64,000 nucleotides of DNA from Raillietiella orientalis. Its lineage: Eukaryota. Positions 3,801-56,434 of this stretch are shown here, piece by piece (the first letter of the stretch is position 1; each line of letters starts with the position of its first letter). Where the stretch lies: contig JAYWIR010000022.1 of NCBI GenBank assembly GCA_036172245.1, forward strand, positions 1,488,001 through 1,552,000. The letters run 5' to 3'. Position numbers and translations under genes: made by a program. Under the pieces are notes generated by a model. That model was not told the DNA's origin. It saw only the letters and a program-made list of their open reading frames with translations, and made no database searches.

Positions 3801-6533
3801 GCTTTCCGTAGTCTGGTAATTGTTAATGATGATTTATGATTTGCTTTAATTATTTTGTAATAGTTGCAGTTGCATGATCAGGGACAGAAGTTAGGCTCCA
3901 ATCTTTATGTTGATATTTGTTCAGCCCTTAATGATGATTATGAATGTGTACGTCAAGTAGTTTTGCAACTTATTTATTGCATAAGTCAAGATTATCCTGA
4001 TCAGTAAGTTACTTATTCAAAAATGAATTCTTGAATTCTCATAGATAATGATCATATGTCTGTAGAATTAATTTTTCCTTTCTGTCTTTGTAGTTTGATA
4101 AATTTATCTAGTGATGAGAGTATCCGTCTTGTGGATGATGCATTTGGTAAGATCTGCAATTCCATTAATGATCTTTCGGTTGCTGTTAGAGTGCAAGCAG
4201 CTCAGCTCCTAGGTTGCATGGTCAATCTCTCTCAGAAATTTCTTGAGCAAACACTGGACAAGAAATTGATGTCTAATATGAGGGTAAGAATGATTATGTG
4301 TAGCATGGGCTTTAAATATGCCACAGAGAAAAAGGACAGCACATGAGAGGCAGTTAGAGATGGTGACTTCTGGAGAGTGGTCTACAGGAAAGAAGTGGAT
4401 GGATGATGCTCCTCAAGAATTACTGGAAGCTAATTCTGTCAGTTTAATTTCTTCTGGAGCTTGTGGAGCATTTGTTCATGGATTAGAAGATGAATTCATG
4501 GGTAAATGTTAATGTCTTCAAATTCTGTTGTACATGATTGTGTGCATAACAGAAGTTCGAGGTGCAGCAGTAGAATCAATGTGTCAGTTAGCATTACAGA
4601 ATCGTAATTTTGCTCTCCTTTCTTTGGATTTTTTGGTTGACATGTTCAATGATGAAATTGAGGAAATACGCCTAAAAGCCATAGCCAGTCTAGAGAGAAT
4701 TAGTCAGTATATTGTACTTCGTGAAGACCAATTAGAAACAATATTGGCCCTTCTAGAGGTAACAAAGATTTCATTTGTCTCTTAACTGTGAAGAAAGGAT
4801 TCGTCTTTGGATATTCGAGAAGCTTTGCATCATATGTTGGCATCTTGTAAACTGCATACAAAAGATGGACTGAAGATGTGCATTGATAATTTGCTTGGTA
4901 ATTTGAAGCGCTACCCTCAAGTGAGACAAGAAATCATAGAAAACAAGTTGGTATTTTGATTTCTGTTGATATGTAGGATCGACGCAGTATTTGGAAATGT
5001 TTACAACACTTAGGTTGTAATCATGCTCATCTTGCATTGGCACTAGTTCCACTACTTCTTGGCATTCATCCATATTTAGATATGCCTGAGCCAGATATGG
5101 AAGATCCTGCATGTAAGCATGCGTTTTATAGCAGTGTTCAGACTATGTGATGCTTTATTATGTAGATATCTGTATACTGATCCTAGTATTCAATGCTGCC
5201 CAGCATTGTCCAACTATGCTACCTATGTTTGAAGACCATACAGTGCGTCATTATAGATATCTGCGGGATAGCTTGCCTAATTTGGTTCCCGAACTGCTTT
5301 TCTCTGAAAGGCAGAATCATTTTACTCTACCTTCAGTTATTTCCAAAGCTGACTTATTCCTTCAACAAGTTTTAGATCGGTTGCATAAAGTTCAAATTTT
5401 GGATTCAGTAGGGCAGCAAACGTTGTATTCCAGATGTTGTAAAGATTTAGAGAGAATAGCTCAAATAGATCCATTATTGTGTTCTTCAGCAACATTTGCT
5501 CGTTTGCATGTGCAGAGTTACCTCATGTTTACAGAAGTAAGTTTGGGTTCATTTTTTGCTGGGGTAAGATGAATTTTTAGGTCTTGAATAATAAAAAACT
5601 CAAAGACAACAGCAGTTTAATCATGGTAGAACAAATATTGCATATAACTAGTAGGTAAGGTTTACTTATTTCATTGCAGTCGAATAAAGTGGTTTTAGAT
5701 TGCGGCATTTATTTAAAGGGATGAGTATGGCAGAATATGCTGGTGTCTTGCAGTTACACTTGAAAGTGTTGTCACTTTATTTACTCTGCATTGTGCATAC
5801 TAATTCATCCAGTTCAGTATCTGATTTATTTGAATTGCTGCAAAAGGAAGGAGAGAAATTAAACATGTTTGTTCATAGATTATTTTTCTCAGTGATAGTA
5901 TTTTTGTTCAGCTTGTCTCAGAGTGAGCAGCTACCATTAGAATCGACTGTGATTAGCATTCTACAAAAACTTCATTCTGTAGACAAGGCAACAGTGGATG
6001 ATTTTGTGTCACAAATAGAATCTGTACTGCTGTGTCATCAGCTGCCCCCCATTTTATTACATAATCAGGTAATATCTTAAAAAGTGTGGTTTCATTTCTG
6101 ATCAATGTTTCAGTTGCATATGGCATCTGCTATAATTTATGAACCTAGTGGAGATTCTGATACAGCACTGAGGTTTACAGCTGGGTTGGTATTAGGCATC
6201 CCCATTGATTGTGAAATTCACAATGTGCCCAATATAAATCTTTTGCGTATAAAAATTCGATATCCTGATCAGCAAATTCATTTAGTGACTCCTAAACATT
6301 CAGATCTTCGACCATTTCCACATACTTCTGATAGTTACCGTTTGTTAAGCACTGTTTTGATATCTCATCAAGTATGGTCAGAACCATGTCATATTGAATT
6401 TAGTGTAGTGTTAAGTGTATATGATGATCCACCTGGAAGACATCTGTTTGCAGATTCCATGTTACAAACTATTGATTTATGCAATTCTGTGCAAGTATAT
6501 GTTTCACCAAAGTTAATAAGAAGGGGTATTTGA
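820..6533 (+). CDS. IntS4: Integrator complex subunit 4 (HEAT-repeat protein), 16 exons, about 931 aa
   Basis: Exons 820-864, 1038-1202, 3264-3392, 3439-3585, 3666-3815, 3864-4003, 4094-4283, 4327-4501, 4553-4758, 4798-4920, 4977-5112, 5166-5536, 5581-5654, 5699-5866, 5912-6068, 6114-6533. All GT-AG, phases consistent, total 2796 nt. INTS4 motifs [69 protein letters not shown]. Confidence 0.95.
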
Positions 6534-13020: not shown

Positions 13021-14149
13021 ATGACGTACATGTACAAGCAAGTGAAAGTTCTCAAAAGAATTCTATCTGCATGCCAAAAGCTAGAAACCGTGAGGCATTC
13101 ATGGCGAACTTACCACAGTGTGTATCCTCTGTACAAAACAATGTGTGGATTGATATCGAAAAGCAGTTGCGTCCAGTTACAGTCATGTATGTATGTATTT
13201 CGTATTTCGTGTGTGTGTGTGGGGCGGGGAGGGGATGCGTCCATTCGACTCTCCTACTACTTTTCCACGTTCCTGTCGTGAGCTATGCAATTGAAATTTT
13301 CACCCATTTATTCCAATAATGTGTATCACATGACGTGAGCACAAGTGATTCCACATCTTGCAAGCGGTACATGTTTGAGAATGCTCACAATTTTTTTCAC
13401 GTTAATTGCCAACTAATTCAGGGAGTGCTGGGAAAGGTGTTTTTCACTGACCTCAGCGTGTAAGTGATTATAAGCTCCGTATGAACCCTGATATTTAGGT
13501 TCCACACAATCCGCTCTTTTGAAAAGAAAAAAAATAAGTAAATAAATGATATGAAAGTTACGCATCGGAAATTCATTTTGTAAATGTTTCTTGACAAATA
13601 CAGTGCTATTACATCCATTTGCTATTATTAGTTGTGTTTAATTAGATCGTTTTTTTCGGGTGCATACATCGATGTGCATCGAGGCGGGAGATAAATTTCG
13701 AAAAGACGTTGAGTATGCAGAGCTGGTAGAGCTTCTGGAAAAGCAAAAAGTTTGTCTAGTTGACGTTCGAGATCCTCAAGAGTTGGAGGAATATGGACGC
13801 ATACCTCGCAGCATTAATATTCCATGTAAGCAGTTTTGTAGATTTGTTTACAATGAAGACTTTTTGTGCAAAAACTATGAGAGGAAAACGTGCCGACGTT
13901 AAGATTCGAAATCTCTAATGTCTTTTAAATTTAGTAACTGAACTCAAATCAAGTTTGGAATTCGGGGAAGAAGCTTTTCGTAGAATATTTCAAGTTCCAA
14001 AACCAAGTTACGAAAGCAAGCATTTGATTTTATTTGGACAGGGACCTAATCAAGGAATAACTGCATTAGAAATCGCGCATAAAGTGGGATTTAAAAAGTA
14101 AGTTATTTATCTAGAAGTGTGAATTGTGCAGTCGAATATTTCCTCTTGC

Positions 14150-14186
<37 letters not shown>

Positions 14187-14612
14187 AGATCCGCAGATGT
14201 ATGGAAACTTTGCCTCCAGTTTTGCTTATTTGCAATGCGGATCTGCTTGCTAGAATGAACATATTTTTAGCAAGATGCAGTTGTTATTTGTTCATTCAGT
14301 AAACCACCTAATCTATAGTTTTTTCGGCCACAAAAAGTCTTCAGACTAGTGTATTTTCAATGTAGCAGTATACATGTAGAATATGTCTTTCAGTGTCCCT
14401 AGTGAGGTGGGCATTAAGTAGTTCTGAAAGTAACTTTGAGTGTACTTACCACACATCGAAACCAAAGCAAGATGATGTGATTGTCTTTAGTTGTCGGTCA
14501 AATCGCCGTTCTTTCAGAGCATTTCTGATTGCCGTGGACATGGGTTTCGAAAAGTAAATTTCATTTCTTTTGTAAACGCAGCTTAAAATGCGCAAAGCGC
14601 ATGCATCCTCGA

Positions 14613-14645
<33 letters not shown>

Positions 14646-17436
14646 TGTGTAATTCAAGTCTAGAAGTAAGTACCTAGTGCCTGCTTAGTAGTAAGTTCCT
14701 CACGATATTGGTTCATTGAACGGGTAAACTATAAAATTTTCAACGTGCTTTTTGTTTTCGCACATATCTGTTTGCAAACGGACTCTTACGGAGAATCGGG
14801 AAAAAAAAAAAAACGTTTTAGTCGGCCACGAATTCGCTACATGCAGCAGCATGGCCAAAATGAAAACGGCGTACTTGCGAGGTTTTGAATATTTTTTCTC
14901 TTCTTTGTTCTTGGAAAATGCTTGTGGATGATGGCATTATCCGCCTGAATGAGGCTTGAAAAACAAATTTACTGCCAAAGTTCAAGTTGAGATTGGGGAG
15001 GGAGAGGGGGGGGGGGTCGAAATCCTGGTATCGGTCGATTCCGGTTGATGGTGTGTGTTCCCGGTCGAAATTCGTTGGGCATTGGATGAGGACTTCAGAG
15101 TGCAGACCTCGGCATCATTTGGAGATTCATAAAAGCACGAAGACACAGCTACCGATTTCCTTCTGAACAGAAGCTTTCGTTACGTTCTCTTGAACACTGT
15201 TGATTCGCATTTTCTCGTTAGTTCGTTCAAGTTTGGTAGGGTTTGCTTTGTTTTCTCATTTCTCTCGATAATTCTGATCTGTGTTGACAGACCGCACGCT
15301 GTTTTAACGCACAACCCATCACGTGTTAACAGCAACTTTAAAAAGCAGAAGTGTTGGCTTGTGTTGCGATGTGTTTCTTGGGTGTGTGTGTGTGGGGGGG
15401 GGAGGGGGAACCTACGACTGATTGTGGCACGAATATGGAATTAGCAGTCCAATTCAGACATTTATTTCATTTTTACTGTATCCACTGAAAGAATGCAAGT
15501 AATTTTCCGTTTTAGTGTTGGTATGATAATGGCGTCGTTCCCGATCAGCAACGATCCTGCTTGAAATAGCCTTATCTCGTTTTCAGGACGAAATTATCAT
15601 TCACTTTTACGTTTTATCGAGTAAAACTCCCTTTTTAAAAAAGGGGAATCCACGTCGACTCGTTCGTGCTTTCTGAATTGACAAGATTTGGGGGCAAAGC
15701 TTTCCGACTTTTTTTTTTTTCTTTTACCTTCTTGTGTTCTTACCGTGCACTTGGTGGCGAAAATGTCACTGCCATTGATTCGAATAACCGACGAATTTTG
15801 TGCACCGAGAAGCTGCTTCCGAAAGCAAATGTGTGTACACCCACAAATTGGGAAACACCGTTCGACTACCGCCTTTCGTACTTGAAAAAACATCTGCGCG
15901 AAAATTTCTGGTTTGGGTTTCATTTTGTTGTGAATCCTAAAAAGGTATGGTATAAAATGTACCTTAGTCCTCGGAAGATGATTACGCCTAAGAGCTGATG
16001 ATTTTCAGTCGAGGATCGACGCCGGATCCTTTTTTTTCCTTTTCTCTTCAAGATAAAGCATTAATCGCATTCATCGGAATCTTGTAAATACTTTTTCCAC
16101 GAAAAGATATTGGAAGATAAAAGATATTTCACTTGCAAATGAGTTTTTGTAAGGAGAATGTTTTGAGGCCATAGTCTAGGATGATGAAATTTGGAGAAAG
16201 GATTTTGTACCAAGTTATTTAGAAAGCGTACGATTAATAGATTGATCTTTCCCACAAAATTCCGTTTGTACTTGCAAATTTCTTTCTTTCTTTTTTTTTT
16301 TTTTGAAAAAGAAATCGTACAGCAGCATTTTGGTTAACGGTGCGTTTAAGATACTGTCGTTTGATAGCCATAGGATGTGTTTGTTTACGTGACTTTCCAG
16401 TGAAAGTATGTTGACGTAACTTTCATGTGTTACCACGCTTGTTTGAACCCTTTAATCGGCGGTAATGCAAGCGGTATGAATGAGATCGTTTCTGTTCGTG
16501 ATTTTGCCCGTAATCCATAGGGAAGTCGATTTTCTATCTTTAATTACGTGGTTCCGCCTTACTTTGCAAGTGCCAGTATCTCTTTAATTTGGGCTCTTGC
16601 AAAGTTCCGCTGTCAGCGAATTTAAAAGGAAAAGTTGGAATCTTCTCTATTTAGAGCTTGCAGATGTTAGTTAGTTACCTGCTGTGTCCACGAAATGCAT
16701 AAATCTAGACCTGTTGAAGTCATGTCATTGATTCATATCGAAGGCGCCAACCATTTCTAGGAATTTTCGTTGAGGTCACCAATATTGAGTGCTTTGTCCC
16801 CACGTAACTGCTGTTAAATCATGGGTGGGCGAGAAGGGAAGATGTTTTTGTTTGTTATTCACAACTTTGTTCTTCAAGTTCAAGTTGCCCTGAAAGCAAA
16901 AGTAACATCGACTTATGCACGTATGTCGGTGTCAGTGATACTCGACGTGCGGTTGTGTTTACGTCATGCTTGCACTTGGTAAATTGAGAAAGAAACCCAA
17001 AGAGATGCTTCATTCGAAGAGAGTTCGCTTTAAACGATTGGATCCCAGCACATGAGTTCCGTATCCGTATTTGAAAAAAGATTCCCAGTTGGTTCAGAGT
17101 CCGTTTTTTGTTTCATTGGAGTTGGAACGTTGGATAGGTCGTAGGAGCAGAAAATCCATGGCATTGGGGAGGATGAGAGTCTGAGAGATGGTTGAGGGGT
17201 TCGTATACGTATAGCTCCATCTTGTAGGTTCACCGGAGAGCCTTAGTCAGTGAACTGTAACTTACCGATACACGGCTGTTGATTGCAGAAGTCTCGAATT
17301 TGGTAGACGTAATGTTAGTGAACATTTATTCCTAAATGAATTTTACTTATTTGTTTTTAGAGCGAGATACTACAGCGGTGGTTGGACTGATTGGGCTCAA
17401 CAGACAGGTCAAACACTTAAAGTACGTCAAAATTGA
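13021..17436 (+). CDS. Single-domain rhodanese / thiosulfate sulfurtransferase (TSTD1/TSTD3/Hsp67Bb-like) with basic N-terminal extension; two isoforms of about 194 and 193 aa
   Basis: Exons 13021-13186, 13646-13825, then 13935-14097 OR 14394-14553, then 17361-17436. Motifs LVDVRDPQELEEYGRIPRSINIP and C-terminal ARYYSGGWTDW. N-terminus is K/R/S-rich and nearly acid-free, like a mitochondrial presequence. Confidence 0.9.
13935..14097 (+). CDS. Rhodanese alternative exon 3a (no catalytic Cys)
   Basis: tttag acceptor, gtaagt donor, 163 nt, phase 1 to 2; encodes LTELKSSLEFGEEAFRRIFQVPKPSYESKHLILFGQGPNQGITALEIAHKVGFKK with no stop. Confidence 0.88.
14151..14181 (+). repeat. (GT)n microsatellite downstream of exon 3a donor
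   Basis: Uninterrupted gt repeat of about 15 units. Confidence 0.95.
14394..14553 (+). CDS. Rhodanese alternative exon 3b (catalytic Cys loop CRSNRR)
   Basis: tttcag acceptor, gtaaat donor, 160 nt, phase 1 to 2; encodes LSLVRWALSSSESNFECTYHTSKPKQDDVIVFSCRSNRRSFRAFLIAVDMGFEK with no stop. Confidence 0.88.
14613..14650 (+). repeat. poly-T followed by (GT)n downstream of exon 3b donor
   Basis: Run of about 20 t followed by about 9 gt units. Confidence 0.95.
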
Positions 17437-19483: not shown

Positions 19484-22400
19484 AACAGAAGTGTACAAAA
19501 GACCATGAATGTCAGAATATGTCAGAATTATATCTGTATATTATATGAAATCTTTCATCAGAAGATGAACCCATTTCAAATGAAAATGTGAAATTTATTA
19601 CTTGCTAAGGGTTTTATAATATCGCTGATAGTGAAATCCATTTTATAGACTCCGTTTGAGGATGTCACGTATCACTATGAAGGTAGATGGCGAATTACTG
19701 AGGTAAATATCGTGGATGCTAACTATGCAGACCAGGGAATTAAGAGGAAAGGCTATTTCTGAGCTTGAGAATACCTAATAGATGTGGAATTCTGCTTCAC
19801 GCTGGGCATCGATTTGCCATCTATTAGGTCGCATGGTCTGCACCTTTAGCCCGCATAATACTTACGTCAGTCATGCGCCACTAAATTCAGAGTGATGAAT
19901 TTTCAAACGACGTTCTTTAGCGTGTCAGTTGTGTCATTTACGAACAAATGCGGGTATCATCAGCATCTTCGCAGTACTATGATGCGACCTTTCTTGTTTG
20001 CTCACGTTAAGGTCTTGGAAGTCTGACTTCCGCGGACAAGGCAAGCAAACGTTTCCTATCGTGCAGCATAATCGCCGTTGATAAGGAGACCAACACAGCC
20101 TCAACTCGGAGAGAAGGCTGTTACATTGTATTCTACAATAGGAGGAACTGTTTTCCTCGGAACGCATTTCCAAAACTCTTACGAACACTGGAAAAAACAG
20201 TGCGTTGCTCAAAGAGAATGGATTATTAATGCCATCGTATCTACTGTTACAGTTCACACACACAAAAGTGCATAGGGGAAGATTGACTACTGCAACCAGA
20301 ATTGGCCAGTCTTGGCTGCGAGAACCCGGCACTTTACTACTGCAACACAAGCAGCCCACATTTTCTGATATGAGCCAGCGTGGGGAACCTGCAGTCCACG
20401 AGACCTGTTTATAGGGCCCGTCGGGTTTTTCGAAATTGGAATTAGCCTACAGCCATGCTGCATACCCTGAAAGCAAACAGTGAAAATTCACCGTGAATAC
20501 CTTCCGGTTATGCAAAGCGGTCTAACGTAACACGGGATACTTCAGACAAATATCCAATAAGCACTTTCCTTAAAAATGTGTGCCTTGGTTACTACATATA
20601 GGCGCAAGCAGGTTTTCGCAAGAACAGCCATAGCAAAACGTAAAAATAGGAGTAGCCTTTGCGTACGAAAATCTTTGCAACCAACCTCGCATTGGTAACT
20701 CGTAATCGCATGTCTGATATAAACAAGCTTGTCCAAGAGAAACTAATACAAAAATCTAGTGGAAGTACATGTGCAATCAACCATAATGGTGTGCAGAAGT
20801 TATAGTATCAAAATGATAAGAAATCATTTTGTTCGATTAGTCTTTTGTTGAAAAAGAAATAGATAGCTAGTTTATAAAAGACACTTTATAGATACGCTCA
20901 TTGAAGTGATGTAGAAAGGATGTGGCACGAAGGAATTCGTCGATCAACCAGGGATGAACGTGTCAAAGATATCTTCCTTCTGCCACAGCTTCCCATGGAA
21001 GCTCCAGAGGAGTGACCGGGATGATTCGGAAGCGATCTTTATTTAGCTCCACAGGTCCTTCTACCCGAGAAACGGGTCATTAGTGATAAATCATTCTTAA
21101 GGAGAACCAAAAAAAAACAAACATGTAAAGGGAGAGATTTTATTCATTTCAAGCTATCACTCTGAAAGAGCTTCTGTTCCTCCTGTTTTTGTCTTTTGAT
21201 TGTTTTTTTTTGTTGTTTTCATTTGGAGCGATTACCCAGCCGATGCTTCTAATATACATCACGGCTACCGTAGTGCGCTCACACAATTTCTTAATTGGTG
21301 TGTTGCTCCCGTTGTGAGGATTTTCATTATTCGGCGCAACTTTTTTTCCTGTCTCTGATTCATCTTCCTTGGAGCCCAGCCTCTGCACTGATAATTGGGG
21401 TACACAAATAACCTAATTGGTAAATTGAGTCCCCCCCCCTCCCTTTCCCCCATCCCTTTCGTCGCAGCACCGTCCTCCCCCCTCCCTCTCCAGAATAACG
21501 ACAGAAGCCGACTGGAAAGATGGGAGATCACCTGCTAATCTCAGGAACTCCTCTGCGGGTGGAGCGCACTCCAAATGGCCGACGCGGTCGCACGACATAT
21601 TCCTTTTCGAAAGACTTCTTCCCCGGACAGATCTTCTGGGAATCCCCCAGGAAGATACGAGGGTCCCCGCCCAGTTCCGCGCTCCCCCTCAAGTGACAGG
21701 ACCCGGCGGGCTCTGCTCTGTGACGCTCGGCAACACCATTCTCACCCGGCGATTCCGATGCGCTTCTTTACCAAAAAGAAAAATAAGCAAAGTAGGACGT
21801 GGATCCTGCGAGACCTTATGAGTTCGGGAAGGGGTACGAAGCCACCGACCCGCAGGTCGGCCGCACAGAGGGATACAGGGAAGGCACAATAAAGAGAAGG
21901 ATGGATAAGGGAAAGAGGGCAACAGCTTGCTTCAGCCACGAGCTCTGCAACCTGCGTGTGATGCAGGCGGCATCCTCCTTCAGTCGCTGTTGCAGGCGAG
22001 GTCCACTTCGATACACTCTGCGTCACCGAGGAGGCAACAGGTCGGCAGGCTTCTTCGCTTCCTGCTGACGCGCCTTCTGTGTGCGCTGAGATCCTCCTGA
22101 CGCAACGCGGGGCTACAAAGTGGACGCGGCAGACGACGAAAGACCCTGGGTGAAGCAGCGCCGCAGCAGCTCCCTCCAAGTGCCTTCAGCGTGGAGCAGG
22201 GCAGCCACGAGGCGTTCCCGGATTCTTTGAAGGGCGCCACAGTCCAGTGCAAAGGTCGTAAGCGCGCAGACGTCTCCGCTCACCTGCACCCAGCCCATCT
22301 CGGGCGGACTCCCGCCCTTTGCCGAGCAGTGTCGGCGCCTATTGCTCGGGAAGCTCCAGTGCACAAACAGCAGAGCCTCTTGCTCATCAGGGGCAGTGCG

Positions 22401-23379
22401 CGTAGGTGTGCGAGCAAATGGGAGGGATCACAACTTCCGAGGGCGCAAAGCAGAGCCCTCCCTAAGCGCAGTCACCGCGTGCCTCCGCGTCCGCCAGCTG
22501 GCCCTCTGGTCCACTCTTGCTACGGCTCTCGGAATTCACCTTGCCAGCTGGAAACTGCCGTTTCTCTCCCAGAGGGTGGACAACGACGCGACTTAGGGAG
22601 TGGAGGTGGCTCGGACCCACATCCTCTGGTTTCATTTCACTTCCCCCAAGCAGACCGCTCCCAGATTATGGGATGGGTCGAATCAGAAGTGTCAGACCTT
22701 GGAATGCGGACCTAGGCTACTGCATCCTGCCTCCATGCGCTGTATTTTGCGGGACGAGATGAGATCCATTGGTGCTCTCCCCACAGGGAGGCGATCTTCC
22801 TCAGCGGGAACTCAAGGGACTTCGTCCGCTCTCGGTCGTGACGAAACAAGGACTTCATTCCCTCACAACCGACCGCATGCTTCAGGATCTCGCGCGCAGG
22901 CAGGCACCGATGCCGCGTACAGTTTTCGGCCATTGAGACCATAATTCCGAAGGGAAGTTGCGGCTGGCTCCATCTTCCTCAACGTTAGGATGCCGAGACC
23001 TGCATTCCTTCTCGGCGAGATCTTTATGGCGAACCTTCGCCCTACAAAGACTCATAGGGCTTTCTGAATTAGGCCGTTCGTTTCATGTCTCTCCTCGATT
23101 GGACCCATGGAAGCGAAAAGAAGAGGACGGAGAAAGGAGACAGCGAAAACTCCGTATTGAGGTCCATTCCGGGAAGCGAAACTTGCTTCTTGGAATGGAG
23201 TCAGCGCCATTCCTTCCTTCTGGAGGTAACCGGACGGGACTTACGCGGGGCAGAAGTCTCTTAGGGCACTCCAAGGCATTTCCTTCTTGGACCTTGTTTG
23301 GATCTGTTTTGCCAGAGTGATGATGCTCCTTGTGCGGACACGCAGGATGGAGCAGAAGGACCATGCCGATGCGCTCTAG

Positions 23380-26000
23380 GCTCAATGCACCTCAGATTTA
23401 GCGCGAGGATAGAAGAGGCCTTCGGAGCTCGAAATTTGGGAAAACGCTGGCAAGACGAAGTGCTCGATTTCCGGAGATGCACATGAGGGTGGAGGTTGCA
23501 CCCCCTTTTCCTGAGAAACGGGAAAAGGGTTTGTTTTCCTTGGCTGAAAAGCGACCAGGAGACCGTGCGATGGATGTTGGAAGCAGGAGATGATGGAGTT
23601 CTCCCAACAAGAATGGCAACTCGTATTCCAGGAAAACGGGAAGGAAGAGAAGAGTCATTACAATGGAGGCACAATTCCGAAAGCGGATCTGGCCAGGACT
23701 TCGCTAGCGTCGCTCCCCGTCTGTCCCGTGGAGTCTGTGGCTTCTCCAAACGCAGACAGCTGTAGAAGGATGCGTCCGCGGAGCCCTGAGCTGGGGATCG
23801 CGGGTGAACTGGCTTCTCTCACCCAGGAGCATCAGGAGGAAGGTCCCTGTGTGCTCCTTGAAGGAAGGAAATCGTGGAGAGTGGACCGCTTTCTCGTAGC
23901 AAGGGATGGGAACGCCGCCTTCGCTCTTTTGCTCCCACGCTTTCAAGCGCCGTGGGGACTAAGAATGCCAGCGAGGACTCACGGGGAGAACAGGCACGGT
24001 TGGAGTGCCTATCAAAGAGGAAGTGCTTCTTGAGTCCTTTCCCTGGTACCCCCTGAATTTCCCTAGAGTCATCACCACGTTTACAGCGGGCATGCAGCCG
24101 TCGCAGCAGCCAGCACTTAGCTAACGTCCCTGGTCCTCCCTTTCCTAAAGAAGACAGGAGCATTCGCTATTCCTCGTCAGGGGCGTCTAGGAGACGAGAA
24201 CATTATAGTGGAAGTTCCGGAAAGGCATAAGCAGACAGGAGTGCCTCCATAAGGACGTGAGAGTGCTTTCGCTTCCTTCCTTCCTCCCTCTTGTGGTCTT
24301 CGTCCACACATGAGTGAGAGGGTAAGGGGGAGGATACTGGAAAATCTAGGTCTTGGAGTCCTCCATTTACCTCCACCTACGCTCCCCTCCAGCACATTGG
24401 ACGGGTTCCTTCAGTGTTTCTTTCTCCCGGATGCAGATCACCACGGCCAAGGCAAAGGCAGCACAAGGAACCTCATGGGCCTCCCTGGGCGCAGTCCTCG
24501 CGGCAGGTCCGCCGAGGAAATGAAGAGATCCTCCGGGATGTTGCCTTGGCAAGCACCCGGATGAGCGTCGGTGGAATGGAGCTCGCGTCTCTTCCCCGGG
24601 GCAATACTCCCTTTACACGAGTTCTGGTGCGGACCTCCCAGAACCCATCTACGGACCGGTAGGAGAGCACTCACCTTGTTCCTGAAACGGGATTCGGTCT
24701 TGCGTCTGAGGTCGCCCACAAGCTCTCCCACTTCTTGTGGATAGGGTGAGGAGAAAATCGGATAGATGCAGGGGGAAGGGGACAGGTATTCATGGCGGGA
24801 CCAAGGACCTTACGGTCTCGAGATCGCGCGCCGTCATTTCTTCCCGTCCTCCTCGTCGCAAGGAAGGCTCGTTTTTCCCAGAGGAATCTGCTATCCCGTC
24901 CGTCATCTTTCCCTCACCACCTCGAGATCCTTTCATCGCGGGTTTATCTACTATTCCCGGAAGGATGCTCAAAGGACATATTGTTCTCGTTCCTCCACCC
25001 CTCTTTCCTCCTTGGGAGGAAGGTGCTTCAGGGGGACGCCACCTCCTCCCGAGTTCTTCCCTTCCCTTCCTTAGCTTACCGTTTGGAATAGACAGGGACG
25101 AATGAAGGGTGTCGTTCCGTCAAACTCTACAAGACAGAGGCGCTTGGATGGACTGGGTAGGGGCTCTCAGGTGATCCTCACCAAGATCCCGACGGTGATG
25201 CAAGATCGCGAGTTCTCGAGGAGACACTGCCGGACTGCCTCTTTTTGTCAAGCTTCGCACATACCACCTCCTTTTTTCCGGTACGGAGATCTTTTTATCA
25301 CGAAGATTCATCTTTTCGCCTCTCATTCCTGAACGCGGGACGTGGAGGGGCTGAGGAAAGCGGTGTGTGCTACCCTCAGCAATTCCAAGGGACCCTTGAG
25401 CTCGCCTTGCTCCTCCTCTCACCTTCACATCCCAAAGCCGCCACCTAGCTCGTTTGCATGTCGCGTAGAAATCGGCAAGAGACTCCTTTTCTGTTTTATC
25501 CCGAGTTCTCCGCGAGAGGGAGCATGCGACGTTTCGTCTCCCGTAATCGCGACCTGAGCACGTCTCCGCCAGTCCTGAAGGAAGGAAAAGGAAGAAAAAG
25601 GGGCAATAATAGCAGTAGCAGCAGTGCGAAGGAGGACGTGAAAGGAAGACTCCTAGAAGAGGAGCGGTTTCTCTGGGAAGGAAAGCGGTTCTCGAAGCGA
25701 TCTTCTGAGTGTGTGTTCTCAGGATTCGCCAATGTGTTCATTCTGGAACGGATGGATGTCTCTGGCACTCATGAATGGATTCATCAGTTGCTCTGTCCCT
25801 CCTCGCAGGGGCAATCTCCTTCCCCTCTCGTGCCGTTGTCATGGACTCGAACCTCCTCCTTCCTAGCTCTCTCCTTTTGTCTCTGTCAACGACGATGTCA
25901 CAAAGTGTTGCATTGACCAAACACAGACCTTCTCTCCCTACCCTTAAATACCTCTTAAAATTTGTGTTCTGGAGCTCCCAGTCTCACAATTGAGCCCTGC
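23380..26000 (+). pseudogene. Decayed ADAMTS-like (M12B reprolysin) metalloprotease gene with introns
   Basis: Degenerate motifs in ADAMTS order: EAFG and HYNGGTI...SLASLPVC (propeptide, ~23410-23720); AIL/frameshift/FTR and ETGFGLASEVAHKLSHFLWIG-intron-IHGG (catalytic HExxHxxGxxHD remnant, 24600-24800); GAWMDW...FSRRHC (TSP1, ~25140-25230); LRKAVCATLSN...LVC (Cys-rich, ~25350-25460); TFSPYP*IPLKICVL (spacer, ~25927-25971). Stops and frameshifts throughout. Confidence 0.55.
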
Positions 26001-32736: not shown

Positions 32737-35700
32737 TCATTTTCTCTTCTTCTGCTTCATGTAATTTAGAGCACTCCCAGCTTTAAACCAACAGATCTGC
32801 TCTTCATTAAATGAGTGCTGGAGCTTTATGGTGTGTTCTGTTCCATCTGTATGTTTTACTATGCAGGTGACAGCCTAAACAATGGCATTAGTACCCACTA
32901 CACAAACACCGCCTTACTTTTCCTGGAGACAAATTCTTTAAATCAATCAAGGACAATTTATCAGATGGACGAATAGTATCATAATCCGAAGGATTCGAAA
33001 ATGTGAGAGGGAGCAGGCCTTGTTTTTTCAAATTAGTTTCATGGATGCGAGCAAAACTTTTGACTATGATTGCTCTGCCACCTAAATGACGTGGCTCTAA
33101 GGCTGCATGCTCACGACTACTTCCTTCACCTATCCATTCATAAATGAAATTATACAACAAACTACATTAGCATTTTACGCAAGTTCACCATAATTTTCAT
33201 CTCCAATGGCACACCAGCGAATTCCTTTACTTTTGTAATAACGGGCTACTGTGGATATTGCATCAAACTCGTTTGTTTCCACATTTCGAACGTTGTTCAT
33301 TTGCCCGTTTTCTTCATTCACGGCACTTTAGTAGCTATGAAATTCGCTATTTAAAAGTAATACTGCTTACGTCAAAAATAAATTATTTGAAATATTATCT
33401 AGGTGACCACGATATTTTAGCCAAGGTCCAGCAGCAGAAATGTGATCAGTTGTACATTTGCCTTTCACCTGGAAATAAAAGAATGTTCCATTTGCTATTA
33501 TATGAAGTGTGTTCACCTTAATAAGGATAGTCATATCCAATAGGTCTTTACCGTCCCATACATCAAATGGTTCCAAAAGTTGCAGTCTTTCAGATTTGGG
33601 ATCCACTTTCACCTCAATGTTGGAGCTATCTTCAGGAGGACTTGTGTAAGTATCCTGGCCAGGGTCAAAACCTCGAACAGGAAGTTCATCTCCAGTTGGA
33701 GGAACCAAAGTAAAAACTTCGCCATCATTTCCTTTTAATTTGTCTGTCAATGGATTGAAATCCAAGCTTCCGGATATAGCAAATGCAGTAACTAATTCTG
33801 GAGATGTAATAAATGCATGAGTGGCCGGATTGGCATCATTTCTTCCAACAAAATTTCTGTTATATGATGTAACAATAGTATTTTTTTCTCCTTTCTTAAC
33901 ATCTGATCGATTCCACTGTCCAATACATGGACCACATGCATTTGCCAGAATTATTCCACCAAACTTTTCCAAAATTTCAGCAAAACCATCCCGTTCAATA
34001 GTAGCTCGTATCTGTTCTGATCCTGGAGTAACTGTGAAAAGACACTTTGCTTTTAAACCATGTTGAAGAGCTTGCTTTGCAATATGCGCACACTTCGCCA
34101 TATCTTCATAACTGGAGTTTGTGCAACTTCCAATAAGTGCTGCAATCAAGTTCATAAAAATAATACCTATTTTAAACTTACCGACACTTATATTTTGGGG
34201 CCACTGGTTACGTTCTGATGCTTCTGATAATGTTTGGATGGGATGAGCAAGATCTGGAGTGAAAGGTCCATTCACATGTGGTTCCAAATGATCTAAATTA
34301 ATCTCAACTAACTAGAGTAACTGTTATAACTCTAGTTTCCGTATTTGATAGCAACCTCATCATAAAATGCATCAGCATCTGCAGTCAATAGTTTATCCTT
34401 GTATTGGAAACATGTCTCAGCAATTTCAGAACGTCCTGTAGCATGCAAGTAATCAGCCATACGCTGACCATAAGGAAACACAGAAGTTGTAGCACCAAGT
34501 TCTGCTCCCATATTACAAATAGTTGCCATACCTAAATACTCATAGCTAATGACTTTTTAAACTTTATACTGACCAGTGCAAGAAATGGAATCTATGCCAG
34601 GACCACTATACTCAATTATAGCACCTGTTCCGCCTTTCACAGTTAAAATACCGGCCAATTTCAGTATAACATCTTTGGGCGAAGTCCAATTATTCAATTT
34701 TCCAGTTAAGTTAACGTTGATAACCTAGCATTTCAAAGTTGCCATTATTTGGTACCTTCAGGTCTTGTAAATTTTCACATCTGCGTGCAACATTATCATA
34801 ACATTATTAATAGATGCATTCATGAATTCTAGTAGCTGCTACAAAAAAAATCACAACCAATTCATTTTTAAATGAAGTTCACAACAATAATTTAAACTAA
34901 CAAACAAGTAGACATTGTTAACTTTTAAACAAGAGTGACAACTACACAGCTTTCTCATCTTTACCCACAAATATTCTATATGATACAGCACACTACGTAT
35001 AAACTATTCCTAGAAATAAAAACAGAAGAATTTATCATGTAGTGCAAAATCACCAGCAGTAATTTTCAAGAAAGGTAAATAAGATAGCAAGTGCTATGTC
35101 TGGGGTATTCTTCTTATTACAATATAAATTTGGTAATTCATTTTCTCATCAAATTTATGTCTAATTCATCAGCCAGAAGAACGGATTGAATTTTCACAAG
35201 AGCTGAGAGAATCTGAATTTTCGGAAATTCAGGCCCTTTGACCAATTTGATTCCACAAGACGTAAAAGCATGATTAATGATTAATTTACAAAATCGTAAT
35301 GTTTCACAAACTTTAAATTCATTTGTAGAAAAGAAGGCAATTTGTTTGACACCACAGCTGTAATTATGATAAATTCATAAATAGCTAAATTTTTGAAGCT
35401 TGAGCCTAGACCCTAAATACGAATAACTGAAACAAATCACTTTGATGTTTACATTACTGTAAATAATGTTTTAAACAATTTCCGAACTAGCCAAAAAGGC
35501 TCAACACAGTCCAATGCATACCTTACTGGAAGTAGTATTTAATGAATCAGGAATAAAAAAAAATGTTTTTGTACAAAAATTCACCAAACTGTAATAAAGT
35601 TTCTCTTGCCAAACCATAACACGAATCTTGATTCATACCTACTTGTGTTGATTTTCAACTGTTGAAAAAGTAAAGCAGTGAAATTCTGATGTACCATGAA

Positions 35701-42215: not shown

Positions 42216-45199
42216 GCAGAGTAGAATTTTTCTGTTTGTCATCTTGTAAATCCAGCACAATCTGCAAACTTTACAAGGAACTCAGTATAAAACAGGAAGT
42301 AATATGTGGACGATTCTCGACAGCCCTTATTGTGCAGGGAAAGGAATGTGATTTGGAGACTTGCTTGATCTGCCCAGCATTGGAAGTAGGGCACACATGA
42401 TCTTCCTGGCTGCGACGCCTTCAGCACATAACCTGTCACCATAAACTGATTATATAAGGCTTTCTCAACTCTTTACGGTCAAATTCGTCATGGAACAGTA
42501 GGCTGTGTTAGTTGTGTGGGCATGTGTAAGCTGTTATCTATTGAATGGAAACAAACTCTTCCTTTCTATCTATCTTCGATAAAATGCGCGTGAGAGCAGC
42601 CGCAACTATGGCTAGAGTCATAGATATAACAAAATATGCTATTTTCATTTTTTGTGCCATTCGTTTATGTGCAGTTTTATTTTTTTTACTGTAGCAGTAT
42701 ATCACAAAGAAGTAATGTTGAACGTATCAGAGGTATGCAAACCCCACTGCATGAGCATTCAGGGCCATTTTTTTTTTTTTTTTTTTGCGAATGACGTAGA
42801 TCACTGACGAAAGAGAAAAAAGTATCAAGTACTTTGATCTGTTCCTGGATTCAAAACTAAAACCGAGAAGTGGATTTTTGGAAGACAGACTATAAGCAGG
42901 CATCAAGGAGGTACATGAAAAGATGAAGTGATGGGTGCATGCATTTGCTTAGCAAACGACCGTACTCATTCTTAGAATGTAGAGAAGCGAACAGAGCAAC
43001 GTTTATCATGATCAAGTACGAAAAAGATTTAAATAAAGGACGATTGCTCTGAGATTTTCCGCGTAATGAAGAAATCAAAGTACTCCGAAAGTTTCATCTG
43101 GATCCATGATCAATTAGCCCTAGAAATTCCATTTTTCTTTGACCTGCAGAAGTTACATCATGTCTCCCTACCTTCCTCGTCCATTAAAGTTATATCGATT
43201 TTGGTTTTCTCCTGTCGGAAGATAAATGACTAAGTCTAACGATTTACTGATGCGGCTTAATCGAAGCTGCTATTCGGAAGTGTTGACTGTTTTCCGTGAA
43301 AGAAGAGCAGAATCCTGCATTACTCCGGAAGACAAATGGCCAGAGTTGTCTTCACCGAAAAAAGTACCCGTTGAACGGGTTTCGCTGAATTTTTTGGATT
43401 TCCTTCATGTTAAGCAAGAACGAATTTCCAAGATGGATTCGAAACCAAATAGCTGTAAATGTGCACCAAGGGTCTCCAATTCAACTAGGAGAACGGTTCT
43501 TACACTTCAAGTAATTTTCTTTCCCCTTTGGATCCTGAAGACAAGATGCAAATACAGGTGCTCCTAACTAATGTGGTTGCAATGGATTTTCACAAGAGCT
43601 ACTCGTTCTAACAAATACTTACTAGATTCGGCCTTTTGTTTTCCAAGTTATCTGTGCAGTTTCCCATTTATACATGATGTTGATGATTTGCAGCAAAAAA
43701 TGGCTCAGAATCCACATCAAATCCAATGCAAATCAAGCGTAATAAAAAAATAAAAAGATTAGAAAGAAATTTTTTCTGACTGTTCATGAAAACGTAAATA
43801 CTTTTACATTTATCTAAAAGTATTTGCATTTTGATGAAGTCCATATCATGATAAATGTACGCATAAATGTGTAGACAAGATGCATTTATATGTGTGAAAG
43901 AAATTCCTGCATTTCGGACTTTTTGCTACTGATCATTTCACACCCATTCTCCTTGTTGGTCTTCTAAAACTCTGATCAAATTTCTTGAGGGTGCAGAAAG
44001 AGAAAAATTTTCTTTTGCCTCGGGCTCTGCAATGGATTTGCACTACGTGAGCAGGCCAAACTAGGCGTCAAGTACGATTAATTCGTACGAAAGCTTTCTT
44101 GATACAAAAATGGAGGACGATTTTGGTGCAATTCAACTGAACGTGAGCTTCATAGGACCCAGGAACGTCCAGTGTTTCCTTCCAGTCACGTGTGATTTCC
44201 TGAATGAGAACCCGTTTAACGGAAGGTATAAAAAAATTGAAGGGAAAAGAAAAAAAGAGGAAAACGTCCCGTGAGCTGACGTCATCAAGAAGGCTACAGG
44301 AATCGCGGAACAGATGTTCTAGGGTTTCTTCGGGCGTGCTGCTTCGAAGGTTGCAGAAGACTGCGCGCGCACGCGTGTTCTGTATGTTCAAAGAGCGGTG
44401 GGCGATTTGTCGAAGAGTCTGCGAGTCTTATCTCGCTGAGTTCCGGAACTCAAGTTATCCTAAAGGAGTGGACCGTGGCTGATGAGCCGTTGTACATCAT
44501 TGGCAACGGATCCTGGGATCGTTTGGAACCCTGCGTTGTGACTAAATGGGGTGCCAGAGTTTCGCGATCGATTGGTTCGGTACAACGCGAGGACGATGAA
44601 GCATCGATCTCGGGAAAGCTCCGCCGAAGTCTCGGTTTCCGGGTAGACCGTTCCGCTCTAGATAACACCCATTCCTGATTTTTCCTCGATTTTTCACTGT
44701 ATGGGGGGATGGTCGGTGGTGCTCACAGCGCCAAAGGTGCTGAGAGACCTTGAGGAATCGTCGGAAGGATTGCCGAGTCGAGGATTCGCTCGAAAGAGGA
44801 TGCCTCGGAAAGGGATCGAGAGACGGCAGAGGAGTTTCTTAAAGGAGAGAGGATTGACACAGGGAAGCTCTTCTCTCGAGCTTTCTTGCACTTCGCCCAA
44901 AGGGTTCGCATTCCTGATCTCGGTCTTTCAAAGAACTCAGTCTCGCCGCTTTCCTGCCATGTAGGTGTTATCCTTTCTCCTCCTGGAACACCAAACTCCG
45001 CTGGCACAAGCAAGGAACTCGGGGTTAGGCGTGCAATGGCGCCTACTCCCCGGAAATTTGGCTCAAAGAACCTCATCCTTCCCTGTTCCCTTCTATGATT
45101 ACGCCTTCCTTGCCCTGGAGAATTTCAGGGACTTGTTGGGGGAGGAAGAAGAAAACAGGAACAATTCCGAGGTAGCAGAGTGAGGCCACTCACCCCTGT

Positions 45200-46140
45200 G
45201 GGTAGGGGAGGGAGTTTTGATCTCAAGAGAAATCATCTCGGGACATCAGCAGCACTTTTTGCAGGAGATGATGCTTTGTTTCTTTCGTAGATTGGAGCAA
45301 GTTGCGCTGATGAGCCGGAAATCGGGAGCAGAAAATCCAAGACTCTCAAAGCTCGGAGAATAGGGCCACGTACCTGGGGTTTCCTAAAGGACGAACCCCA
45401 TGATGGTCTTTGGCTGTTGAGAGGGCAGAAGCAAGTTTGGATTGGGAAGGAAAGAGGACTGCAGTTTTGGTCTTGCTTGCTTGAGGAAGGTCCAATACGG
45501 TGGTAAAGTATGGATAGAAAGCAGAGATCCCGGTTTTTGTGTCCGACAGAGCCTCTTTGGATCACTCTCCATTCAGGATCAGTATGTGCTGTAGGACTTC
45601 GGGAGGGAAGGTGTCTACCGGTCTCATTTCGTTCGAGGGTTCCACATGGACGTGTGTTGCCCACTTTATCCTCAAGAAGCCGGGAACTCTGTGTTCGGGG
45701 GAGTTCCTTAGAAGTGTGTTTTGGGCATGCGGAGGGAAAAGCTGGTTGAGGACCACAGTCCAGTACGAGTTCTCCCGTCGGGAAAGGGAGTCCTCGAGCA
45801 ACGCGACCAGCTCGAGTTGGGCTATGCGAAGAGACAGAAGTCCGCTAGACGTTTCGACAGGGAGGCTCTGCAGCGCTGCATGTCCCTTGAAGTTCGGAAG
45901 GCTTCAACCTCAACTCTGGAAGCGTTCATACCCTAAGAGGTACCGGAGGATTCTCCCTTTTCCTTTCAGCACATTCAAGAGCATATCCGTCTCATTAGCT
46001 TCAGTGGCGCCAACTTCTGCTTTCTTTGGAAGGGAGAGTCGATTGAAGCGCCTTCTTTTACCGCTTCGCACGAACGGACCAGGAAATCCCTGCTGGTCTC
46101 CCCTGCTCTCCTCCTTCTGATCTGCTGTTTCGCTGGACTC
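45200..46140 (-). pseudogene. Near-open reading frame of about 300 codons interrupted by scattered stops; family unknown
   Basis: One frame reads ...TDMLLNVLKGKGRILRYLLGYERFQS*G*SLPNF...IAQLELVALLEDSLSRRENSYWTVVLNQLF...TFPPEVLQHILILNGE*...; splice-like signals nearby on the same strand. Confidence 0.35.
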
Positions 46141-49100
46141 GAGTCCAGGAGCTTGTCGGAAATGCTGAAAAAGATTTCAGTTCCCGACTGACTCTGTAGG
46201 AGAGTGTTCTCAGGAAATACGCCTACCTGCACTTCGGTTCCTAAGCCGATGCGTGCATGTCCTTACTTCTGCAGAACGCGGTCTTCGAGAGAACTGGCCG
46301 GAACCTCGAGACAGCTGCGAATCCTAAGTGGCAAGCCCGACGAGTTGTCTGCACTTTTTCCTTCCTGCTGTCGTTCGGTTTGTGGTCATGACCACCAAAA
46401 GTCCTCGAGAGGTTTATTACCCGGTCACGCCGGGGAGTTTATTTAAAATAAACCGGTTGGGAACTTTTGTTCCCAACCAAAGACTACAAGAAATAAAGGG
46501 GAGGGTCAACCGGCGCACAGACGGAGAAAACTCAAAGTCCGGAACGGAGGAGGAACAAGGGGGCAACAAAAATAAAGAAGATTGGGTGGGATGAAGCAGA
46601 GATAATTGGATTCGCACTGCAAGCAAACGAAAAAAACATAAAAAAAACACCGGGAAAATTGAGGAGAAAATTTCCCGGTGTAGGGATAGGGAATGAAAAA
46701 AATTATTAAATAAAGAAGGGCAAGATACCAACGGGCTCGGTCGTTCCTAACCATTCGCAAACCGGCGCTGTATGCCGGTGATCTCCGCCTTCGTCTCTTC
46801 CAAGTGATGCCACCTTGCAGTCGAGCTAATGTAGGCGGCTGCCATCGCAATGACATCCCAGTACGCTGCGTGGTGGTCTCCAGAACATTTGGAGCTGTGA
46901 TGATGGCAAGAATGCAACTCATGGTTGCGATCCCCGCTCCAGTCGTCAGTCCTCTCGGGGCGAAGAACCCTCAAGAGGTCGACTCTCCTTTCGCTCAGCG
47001 CGCGGACTCGAACGACTGAGGCCACTGCTCCTCCTTACCACCGATCTCTTCCCATCTCATCGTTACCCGATTCCCTTCCGTTCGTCTTTCCGTGTCGTCG
47101 GTCTCCTCCTGCTTGTTCTTCCATCAGGGACGCTCCTGGAGCCTTCTCGGATTCTCCAGGACCACCGCTGTCTCCTCTGCGATGCCGATCCAGCGTGTGG
47201 AAGGAGAGGAAGCAAAGAATTCGATGAGCTCTTCGATCTCCACTCTCCAAACGGGAGGACAACACCGGGAGTGCGTGTCTGCTGGCCATTCGGTGCGGAG
47301 CTCTCTCTGGCTTCCCCTTCGGGATGCCGACTCAGTTTCAAGTCGAGATCCCTCACTTCCTCTGCCAGCGTGCCAGACGGTTCTTCTGAGAGCTGCACAC
47401 CAACGCTTCCGTTCTAGCACGTGACCAGTGGGGAAGCTGCGATGGAGGCTCGGTGCTCACCTGGAGGGGGGTGAGGGACGAGTCTGAGCGAAGGTCCGGA
47501 TCGCCCGCAGCGGCGCCTCCTGCGTCTCCTTCCGTTTTTTCCGCCTCAAGATTGTCCACATTGGAGAGCCTTCTCTGTGGTTTCCTTTTGCAAGGTGAGG
47601 GCTTACCTTATACAGATGCTAACGGGCAAATGTGTTTGCTTTGTCACGTTTGCTTTGCTTTTTGTTCTTTCTTGAGAACAAATAAACAGACATTGTTCAT
47701 GTGGAAGAGATTGGACGCGTATAATGGAGCAGTGCATTCTTTTAAGTTTTGTGAGATGCAAGAGACATGATAGGGGTATGTCAAGTTGCTAAAGAGAACC
47801 TTCTATCCTCTTTTGGCAGACTACACTCTGATGATTGTAGATTAGACATTCTATAGGAGAAAGCGCGTCCAGACAGATGGATGGGATTTCGGTATCTGAC
47901 AGGAAGAGATGAGGGAAACAGAGAATGAGATTCGGGATGTACGGGAAGTTCAGAGGAGTCTGGAAAAAAAAATCCACAGGGAAACGTACGGCGACTGACG
48001 TGAAAGTCATGTTATCTGTTATAAGAACAAATGCAGTCTCTAGGTTACCTTCTGTCCCCTTCCACTCACGAGAGATTGGCCGCTTGTTTCCCAATGTAGC
48101 TATCGATTCTGCTTTCCTCTGCACCTATGTTTCAGCTTTCTTCTCTATTTCTCTCGCTCATCCTCGTTCGGTTTTCCTCCGGTCCATTTGAAAACGAGGA
48201 ACGTGCTGGAGCAGATTGAAAGAATCCGGGTTGACTTGGAAACAAGTGGATGCACGGCGCATCTTCCTCCTGCATTCAAAGCAGACATGCTGCTTACGAA
48301 TCCGGAGCACTCTTTGGCTGCAAGAAGACGTTTCCTTGTTTCCTTTGTTTTCTTTGGGAAAATCGTCATCCCACCAATTCCCAGAGTGCTTACTTCCTCT
48401 CTCTTCTTCAGAGGCGCAACATTCCGCTCTCCCTCCATCTCACTTCCTTATGAGATCTGCAACAAGTTTGTCAGAGTTCTAGGGTGATCCCGCATTTCTT
48501 CCTGAATCCCTCAGATTGAACGTGGAAAGAGGCCTCCTTTCATTTCTTTGAAAAAGCAGATCTGCGACTCCTAACGCCTCTGGTTGCATCGCCATCGATG
48601 TCGGCGCTTCCTCTAAGCCTATGCGATTCATCACTGTTCTGCCGTTGTCCCCTACCCTTGAGCTGCAAAACTCGTCTCCGTTGCGCTTCGAATGATGCAG
48701 GAATCCTGCTTTCTCGGATCTCCTTTCCTTTTTTCATCTCGTTGGGGGACCTACAGAATCCATGGCATCGTGCACTGGAGACGGCCCTCTTCGGCAATCA
48801 GCAACCTCCTATTCTTGATGTCTCCTGGAGAGGCTCCTAACCTTCGAATTTCGGGAGATGACTCTTGATGATGCTTCCCCGAAGGAACAGGGTCCAGAAA
48901 CTTCCGGTAAATTCCTTGAATATTTCGAGTGAGGGTTGCAAAGCACCTTTCTTGAATTTCTCCTTATTCTTTCCCTCGTGGTGAGAATCCACTAACGTGT
49001 TCTCCACGCTCTCGACGTTTGCGGACAGCTTTTCGATAGGTGGAATGAGGGGGAGATGAAGGCTACTTATGGAGGTCGGGCACTACACTGCAGTGGCTTC

Positions 49101-53827: not shown

Positions 53828-54016
53828 ATGTACGGTCATCATTACCTTAAGCTCATCATGAGTGTATGGCCGTCACTACAGTAGCACCCACAGCAAGCAC
53901 CCAGAACATCATTCATTAAGAATGCATCATTACGTCTGGAGCAACCATCTTAACACCATCACAAATGTACCGCCATCATTGCAATAACACGCACAGCAAG
54001 CATCCAGATCATTACG
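53828..54016 (+). repeat. Degenerate His-rich coding-like tandem repeat
   Basis: cacagcaagcacccaga (~53889) and cacagcaagcatccaga (~53992) plus repeated catcatt. Translates as MYGHHY, VYGRHYSSTHSKHPEHH and MYRHHCNNTHSKHPDHY in shifting frames. Confidence 0.6.
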
Positions 54017-56255: not shown

Positions 56256-56434
56256 TCTTTCTTTCTAAATCTTTCTTCCTAGCTTCTTCTCAGTCGTCTT
56301 CGGCATGCTTGAGGCTCTCTGCGGCAGTGTCCGGAGCTCAAGGAGGTTGAGAGGATTCCGGGTAAATGCGGCAGCAGCGCGTGCCTTGCAGTTCCCTCAT
56401 GGATGCACGCGAACGGGGCGGGGGGTTCCCCATG

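Follow-up and report, generated by a model that had tools for sequence, protein, structure and literature searches.

Active rhodanese domains are defined by a Cx4R/T or Cx5R motif whose Cys opens the loop that follows the central strand, and domains without the loop Cys are termed 'inactive' and regarded as protein-interaction modules (PMC10135228). The available portion of that account sets out lone active domains, inactive domains combined with active ones, as in TST and MPST, and active or inactive domains fused to other domains; these four classes do not include an inactive single domain that stands alone and derives from the gene of an active one (PMC10135228). Human TSTD1 is encoded by four exons and gives three isoforms by exon skipping or intron retention, the full form alone being active, and the same portion mentions neither an exon pair nor a Cys-less full-length form (PMC10135228). 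We consider here a small rhodanese gene on the + strand of a 64,000-nucleotide stretch of Raillietiella orientalis DNA (contig JAYWIR010000022.1, positions 1,488,001 to 1,552,000), referred to in full as the window. The gene occupies 13.0-17.4 kb of the window, which is of animal type, AT-rich and contains (GT)n runs, and its sequence identifies it as an animal TSTD1-like (thiosulfate:glutathione sulfurtransferase-like) single-domain rhodanese. It carries two tandem alternative exons, 3a and 3b, only the second of which encodes the catalytic Cys, and the resulting switch between enzyme and non-enzyme is, judged from sequence, probably real and ancient.

Exon pairs that alter function are not without precedent. 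The mutually exclusive pair of macroH2A1.1/1.2 switches a ligand-binding pocket on or off, in another fold and affecting binding rather than catalysis. Tandem exon duplication was reportedly treated by Kondrashov and Koonin in 2001, a work known to us through a survey that cites it. Mutually exclusive pairs derived from tandem duplication are well known and mostly ancient, and the available portion of the survey, which covers 236 human events, describes the substitutions as mostly conservative with the core function kept in both isoforms; in KHK, for example, the catalytic Arg is kept in both exons (PMC9741552). The window gene resembles such cases in having adjacent homologous exons of the same phase and near-equal length, an apparently ancient origin and isoforms identical outside the exchanged block. 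It differs in that only one of the two exons encodes the catalytic residue itself. Our search of open-access PMC and bioRxiv full text found no description of a mutually exclusive pair in a rhodanese or TSTD1, or of an enzyme/non-enzyme form switched by exons. What is new here is the toggling of a catalytic residue by an exon pair together with conservation of the non-catalytic exon; the type of splicing device is already known.

The rhodanese domain starts in a constant exon 2 (13646..13825, + strand; ...LVDVRDPQELEEYGRIPRSINIP), which contains an in-frame ATG at 13672 and ends in phase 1 at the donor CCAT/gtaagc. Exon 3a (13935..14097, + strand, 163 nt) encodes …HLILFGQGPNQGITALEIAHKVGFK and lies between an acceptor ...aaatttag and a donor gtaagt. 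Exon 3b (14394..14553, + strand, 160 nt) encodes …VIVFSCRSNRRSFRAFLIAVDMGFE, including the active-site loop, between an acceptor ...tctttcag and a donor gtaaat. The last coding exon (17361..17436, + strand) follows an acceptor tttgtttttag and encodes …ARYYSGGWTDWAQQTGQTLKVRQN, with the segment ARYYSGGWTDW leading to a TGA stop at 17434-17436. The coordinates, lengths and AG/GT sites that the initial annotation gave for the two alternative exons are correct, as is their shared passage from phase 1 to phase 2, and the peptides it quoted, LILFGQGPNQG in 3a and VFSCRSNRRS in 3b, are indeed encoded there.

Scripted joining of the exons gives 393 nt for exon 2, 3a and the last exon, and 390 nt for exon 2, 3b and the last exon, both open as far as the TGA. 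When 3a and 3b are both included translation stops at ...GFKNVPSEVGIK, the TAG at 14419-14421 lying nine codons into 3b and 132 nt before the last junction, and when both are skipped a TAG is created at the junction of exon 2 with the last exon. An intact product is thus obtained only with exactly one exon; both are 3n+1 nucleotides long. The earlier proposal that double inclusion leads to a stop codon and double skipping to a frameshift is borne out, and exclusivity follows from the reading frame. Steric exclusion was considered and ruled out, since the intron between 3a and 3b measures 296 nt; the splice sites are all of the GT-AG type.

Are the two exons related? Compared directly they give little sign of it. 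BLASTP of 3a against 3b finds no match, identity is 22%, and a MAFFT alignment of their DNA is not informative. Searching the window with each exon peptide by tblastn returns only the exon itself, and there is no third copy in the window, a family hidden Markov model (HMM) scan giving the same outcome. Third parties are more revealing. Exon 3a matches residues 67-117 of human TSTD1 (6bev_A) with an E-value of 2.8e-5 and 3b matches residues 71-117 with an E-value of 0.015. The family HMM was built from 15 homologues, 12 of them Cys-less and the window excluded, and run against all 2617 stop-to-stop open reading frames (ORFs) of the window; matches with E below 1 were limited to the four exon ORFs. 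The best in the window was 3a (8.3e-16), aligned to profile positions 42-95, exactly the positions to which 3b was aligned (4.2e-9), with exon 2 covering positions 1-44 (2.4e-13) and the last exon positions 95-107 (0.091). The two spliced products each span profile positions 1-107, scoring 137.5 bits with 3a and 114.1 bits with 3b. The Pfam rhodanese family PF00581 was matched by exon 2 alone (E 1.2e-6, 29.3 bits against a cut-off of 22.2), and neither 3a nor 3b alone gave a rhodanese match in that scan, both being too short. Atlas features of 3b likewise indicate a rhodanese (0.93), with all 30 matches falling in the rhodanese family set. The homology of 3a and 3b is visible only through TSTD1 and the family HMM, because direct comparison finds nothing, and on this sequence evidence it is beyond chance. 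The same stretch of TSTD1 and the same HMM positions also uphold the claim that both exons encode the same half of the rhodanese fold.

The catalytic loop is where the two exons part. The 3b loop, CRSNRR (C-RSNR-R-S), is of the form Cx4R, and of the two isoforms only that containing 3b has this hallmark of active rhodaneses. Its Cys aligns with the Cys of TSTD1, of a Tubulanus polymorphus isoform described below, of fish TSTD1 and of a yeast homologue. Exon 3a has Gly in the catalytic Cys column, where TSTD1 has Cys, and no Cys anywhere in the exon, and the Cys residues of the 3a isoform are confined to the leader and exon 2. Going by what is known of the family, the 3b form, which is most like TSTD1, would hold sulfur as a persulfide and pass on sulfane sulfur in the TSTD1 manner, although its loop contains an Asn and the exon evolves fast, as discussed below, and sulfur transfer should be assigned to it with care. 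The 3a form would keep the fold and, because Gly occupies the Cys position, would be unable to form a persulfide. In this it recalls the inactive rhodanese domains, which have the fold without the loop Cys.

Exon 3a belongs to a wider family. A full HMMER search with 3a over 1.84 billion representatives gave 11 matches at E<=1e-3. Ten of these lack a Cys at the catalytic-loop position and are either TSTD1-like proteins or ORF fragments the size of an exon. The eleventh (P0008), a 927-aa repeat protein, was taken as spurious. The sources include a scallop (Argopecten irradians), a nemertean (T. polymorphus), a leech (Helobdella robusta), a krill (Meganyctiphanes norvegica), a crab (Eriocheir sinensis) and, found later, a nematomorph (Gordionus). 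The Cys-less relatives share a very similar helix after the loop (ALEIAHK.GFKK), and several of the fragments end directly after GFK+, which is where exon 3a ends in the window. Identity of 3a to the Cys-less exons of 13 other sequences is 38-51%. In the constant part most relatives reach 42-51%, the leech and the yeast protein being lower at 35% and 38%.

A maximum-likelihood tree of 20 exon-3 segments over 55 columns, in which the deeper order is unresolved, places all 16 Cys-less rows, window 3a and the Tubulanus Cys-less block among them, in one clade with support of 83/90. The four Cys rows, namely window 3b, the Tubulanus Cys block, shad TSTD1 and the yeast protein, fall outside it. By its sequence the Cys-less exon is not a decayed copy; it is the better conserved of the two. 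The initial annotation had spoken of a 'catalytically dead sibling', and while a Cys-less form does exist in sequence the emphasis has to be reversed. With 3a conserved at 38-51% across phyla within a clade supported at 83/90, while 3b evolves fast, the 3a form would be the conserved product with its own selected role. Since the Cys-less exon type is conserved across several phyla, that role is probably non-catalytic, for example the binding of a partner or ligand in the same compartment. The loop of the Cys-less exons varies by species (GQGPNQG, GFGPIKS, ARGPNAS, GLSSVKG, GLIDIKS and others) and the following helix is highly conserved, a combination which a structural or partner-binding role would fit better than a fixed small-ligand pocket. 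Some members classed as Cys-less have a shifted loop Cys, two residues later in YGLCAIKS and YGHCAVKS and one earlier in FCGLGNVKS; loci of this kind from a metagenome scan are L001:286-1011, L004:217-978, L006:11-682 and L007:95-712. To judge from these sequences the shifted Cys might restore activity in the species concerned.

The closest parallel to the window gene is LOC141910900 of T. polymorphus. Its isoforms X2 (XP_074657883) and X3 (XP_074657884), both have 202 aa and share 80% of their residues. Their sequences agree completely up to ...ATNLPLG and again from ARHYAGGW... onwards, and differ in a single block of 53 residues whose borders lie within two residues of those of exon 3 in the window. 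The block of X2 is Cys-less (IFYGQGPIKS, ...NLIFYGQGPIKSKAALELAAKVGYKK), that of X3 has the Cys loop (VFYCLAGIRS, ...NIVFYCLAGIRSLNATNTVKQLGFTR), and in isoform X1 the Cys block is joined to a different 3' end. Window 3a is 51% identical to the X2 block and window 3b 31% identical to that of X3. As in the window, a TSTD1-like single rhodanese domain stands behind a long basic leader and the products differ in one block placed as exon 3; the nemertean differs in belonging to another phylum and in being known here from protein models. These isoforms are automatic NCBI XP_ models and were compared as proteins only. Isoform X3 surfaced in a profile search built on seven Cys-less proteins. The simplest history consistent with these sequences is a single duplication predating the split of the window organism and the nemerteans, because the Cys-less blocks of the two species group together, apart from the Cys blocks.

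Further loci came from a metagenome scan. A first alignment had no sufficiently conserved stretch, and a smaller one led to seven loci, six of which are spliced Cys-less transcripts and one genomic; the second exon type was found in none of the seven. In the genomic locus (L005:1-731) short introns separate exon 2, a Cys-less exon 3 and the last exon, all three fitting into about 730 nt. By sequence, then, the exon pair is absent or has been lost in at least one organism. The proposal of a Cys/Cys-less exon switch within one gene survives in so far as the anatomy fits and a nemertean is annotated with such a pair; it does not extend to a universal arrangement, as L005 indicates.

Models of relatives suggest that both exon types are compatible with the same rhodanese fold. 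For a Cys-less relative of 143 aa (P0007) the AF2 model has a pLDDT of 85.4, and its top match in the PDB is human TSTD1 (6bev), with a TM-score of 0.91 on the target and an rmsd of 1.1 Å, followed by the yeast single-domain rhodaneses RDL2 (6k6r) and 3d1p. The model of Tubulanus X3 has a pLDDT of 86-94 in the domain, with the first 86 residues disordered, the same top match (TM 0.88) and the same order of helices and strands as the P0007 model. TSTD1, a single-domain rhodanese of similar size, is therefore the best solved relative of both exons and both models, and the Cys at its aligned position is kept in 3b. A prediction of the complex between the Cys and Cys-less domains of Tubulanus (residues 88-202 each), made with neither controls nor alignments, scored 0.00 where the mark was 0.34, and the result is uninformative on binding. 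Both models also match the rhodanese-like subunit of kinetoplastid mitochondrial small ribosomal subunits (for example 6sg9_DT and 9hny_DT), a structural use of the rhodanese fold in mitochondria, although this match ranks after TSTD1, 3d1p and RDL2 and has TM-scores on the query of 0.46-0.69.

How might the choice between exons be made? In Drosophila srp, the distal exon 4.2 is selected by an upstream pairing that places exon 4.1 in a loop (PMC4691838). The window gene shares with srp two tandem alternative exons and a stem reaching from the intron before the proximal exon to the intron between the exons. Its upstream arm (13854..13882, + strand) lies in the intron between exons 2 and 3a, 28 nt past the exon 2 donor, and its downstream arm (14312..14343, + strand) in the intron between 3a and 3b, 51 nt ahead of the 3b acceptor. 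Positions 13854-13868 are perfectly complementary to 14329-14343 over 15 nt and, after a small internal loop, 13870-13878 pairs with 14316-14324 over 9 bp, giving 15+9 bp round 3a. Across 1000 dinucleotide shuffles of the two introns the longest exact complement is 12, always short of 15, and the local score of 37 compares with a shuffle maximum of 26. The stem is found in both the minimum free energy and the centroid fold of 13826-14393 (z = -2.09). The 15-mer has two exact matches in the window, which are the two arms, and five matches when up to three mismatches are allowed. RNAduplex applied to the whole introns, intron 2 against the 3a-3b intron, was not discriminating, with 17 of 200 shuffles reaching the observed energy, as long loopy duplexes swamp the signal; significance was judged instead by the exact-complement and local-alignment tests. 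Two weaker inverted pairs, I2 and I5, are 74% and 81% complementary.

By analogy with srp, the stem would loop out 3a, bring the exon 2 donor beside the 3b acceptor and favour 3b, and without it the proximal exon 3a would be used. The stem is in this sense a possible control element for exon choice. The two genes differ in that srp has a second, competing stem round its distal exon, none having been found in the window, and in that the srp stems are conserved and were tested by compensatory mutations (PMC4691838), the window stem being known from one sequence. Microsatellites of (GT)n at 14147-14190, in the 3a-3b intron, and at 14632-14650, just past 3b and beside a T run, may affect local RNA structure or be polymorphic.

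The 5' end of the coding sequence is predicted only. An in-frame stop at 13639-13641 means that exon 2 can be read in its frame from 13642 onwards only, and the sole AG before the ATG at 13672 is at 13644-13645; an upstream coding exon must then end in phase 1. Between 6500 and 13640 nine candidates begin with an ATG and run in frame to a phase-1 GT donor that has at least seven of nine consensus matches. Among those encoding long peptides the nearest to exon 2 is 13021..13186 (+ strand), which starts with the ATG at 13021, ends in phase 1 at the donor CAT/GTATGT and is separated from exon 2 by an intron of 459 nt. Joined to 13646 this candidate first coding exon supplies a basic leader of 64 residues, with eight Lys and Arg and one Asp or Glu among the first 40, similar to the basic leaders of 60-130 residues of the homologues. 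As a prediction it fits a mitochondrial-type N-terminus, and with it the product would have 193 aa in the 3b form and 194 aa in the 3a form.

Is the pair then a working switch? From genomic sequence and homologues alone we think it likely that both exons are used, one or the other. Several observations weigh against this. Both exon types occur in just one further species, Tubulanus, and there as automatic models, and the other species found have Cys-less forms only, the Eriocheir isoforms X1-X3 among those seen. No match to a Cys exon was found in L005. Word-indexed protein searches with 3b and with exon 2 alone gave no match, proteins of the window organism being absent from the collections searched; this is weak evidence. 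A partner stem that would loop out 3b is not apparent, the best complement between 14098-14393 and 14554-17360 being reached by 100 of 200 shuffles, nor is one looping out both exons, where the score for intron 2 against the downstream intron is reached by 60 of 200. The stem round 3a could itself be a recent inverted duplication without function. In addition 3b is only 20-35% identical to any sequence compared (31% to Tubulanus X3, 35% to fish TSTD1), has a branch length of 3.45 in the tree, against 2.0 for Tubulanus X3 and 0.67 for window 3a, and has Asn in the loop where the aligned PDB rhodaneses and homologues have Gly. Regarding the rarity of the pair, the Tubulanus profile search was limited in scoring to the 8000 candidates with most words in common, and of the seven sequences in its own query it recovered only two (P0006 and P0010); absence from other species means little because the protein search was far from exhaustive.

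Taken together, the features peculiar to 3b raise the question of whether it is a decaying or rarely used relic in a gene that effectively makes the Cys-less protein only. Only one branch in the tree is longer, the usual loop Gly is replaced, and L005 has a Cys-less exon only. Its identity to other Cys segments, at 31-35%, is also below what most relatives show in the constant part (42-51%, and 35-51% over all 15). We nevertheless regard this as unlikely. The 53-codon frame of 3b is open, the acceptor and donor look good, the acceptor being better than that of 3a, and the loop has retained its Cys, the Arg at the fifth position after it and the Ser that comes next. The exon is recognized by the family HMM even though that model contains 12 Cys-less sequences out of 15, and by its atlas features. 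A similarly divergent Cys exon is kept in two annotated Tubulanus isoforms, and a stem round 3a would be purposeless without a distal exon to choose. The stop codon produced by double inclusion prompts another thought, that 3b is mainly a poison exon whose inclusion after 3a introduces a premature stop and lowers the amount of Cys-less protein, in the manner of regulated unproductive splicing. The TAG is well placed for this, at a distance from the last junction expected to trigger nonsense-mediated decay, yet a poison exon needs no fold homology, no catalytic loop and no matching phase, and 3b has all three, while the Tubulanus models put the Cys exon in place of the Cys-less exon, not after it; we consider such a function improbable. 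It is far harder to believe that 3a is an unused copy in a gene for an ordinary active TSTD1-like enzyme. The pyrimidine tract at the 3a acceptor is weak (aatctctaatgtcttttaaatttag), which is in keeping with that idea, but 3a matches the constant exons in conservation between phyla, is the best HMM match in the window and has relatives that are full-length annotated or transcribed proteins.

The surroundings of the gene can be described briefly. Upstream, three ORFs at 5132-6533 (+ strand) match the helical-bundle and C-terminal Ig-like domains of Integrator subunit 4 (PF24493 and PF25458, best E 9.6e-45), and the 3' end of this INTS4 gene lies near 6.5 kb on the same strand as the rhodanese gene. 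A large exon of an aconitase gene is found at 33367-34311 on the - strand (PF00330, E 2.4e-48). Two blocks, 20000-26000 and 44000-64000, are richer in G+C than the rest (46-62%, compared with 29-41%) and carry long ORFs on both strands; of 14 such ORFs tested, none matched a Pfam family, and the blocks have no Rfam match or tandem repeat. An Rfam scan of the whole window gave no match and Tandem Repeats Finder, at a score of 80, no repeat.

What would an exclusive choice between 3a and 3b mean? One scenario, speculative and in our view rather doubtful, places the origin of the pair in early protostomes. The Cys-less form would be the main, conserved product and would serve as a partner, itself non-catalytic, to the Cys form or to other enzymes of sulfide oxidation, the gene supplying in trans, by splicing, an 'inactive + active' pair like that of TST or MPST. 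In lineages where only the Cys-less exon is present, the catalytic half would have passed to a different gene. More generally, mutually exclusive pairs usually fine-tune a function kept by both isoforms, and here the swap removes the catalytic residue. The matches to 3a indicate a widespread invertebrate family of Cys-less single-domain TSTD1-like proteins, of which we found no discussion in print. Gene predictors that report one model per locus would present either an enzyme or a non-enzyme at such a gene, depending on the exon picked. A splice-controlled on/off switch would be useful for probing the part that 'inactive' rhodanese domains play in the metabolism of sulfide and persulfide.

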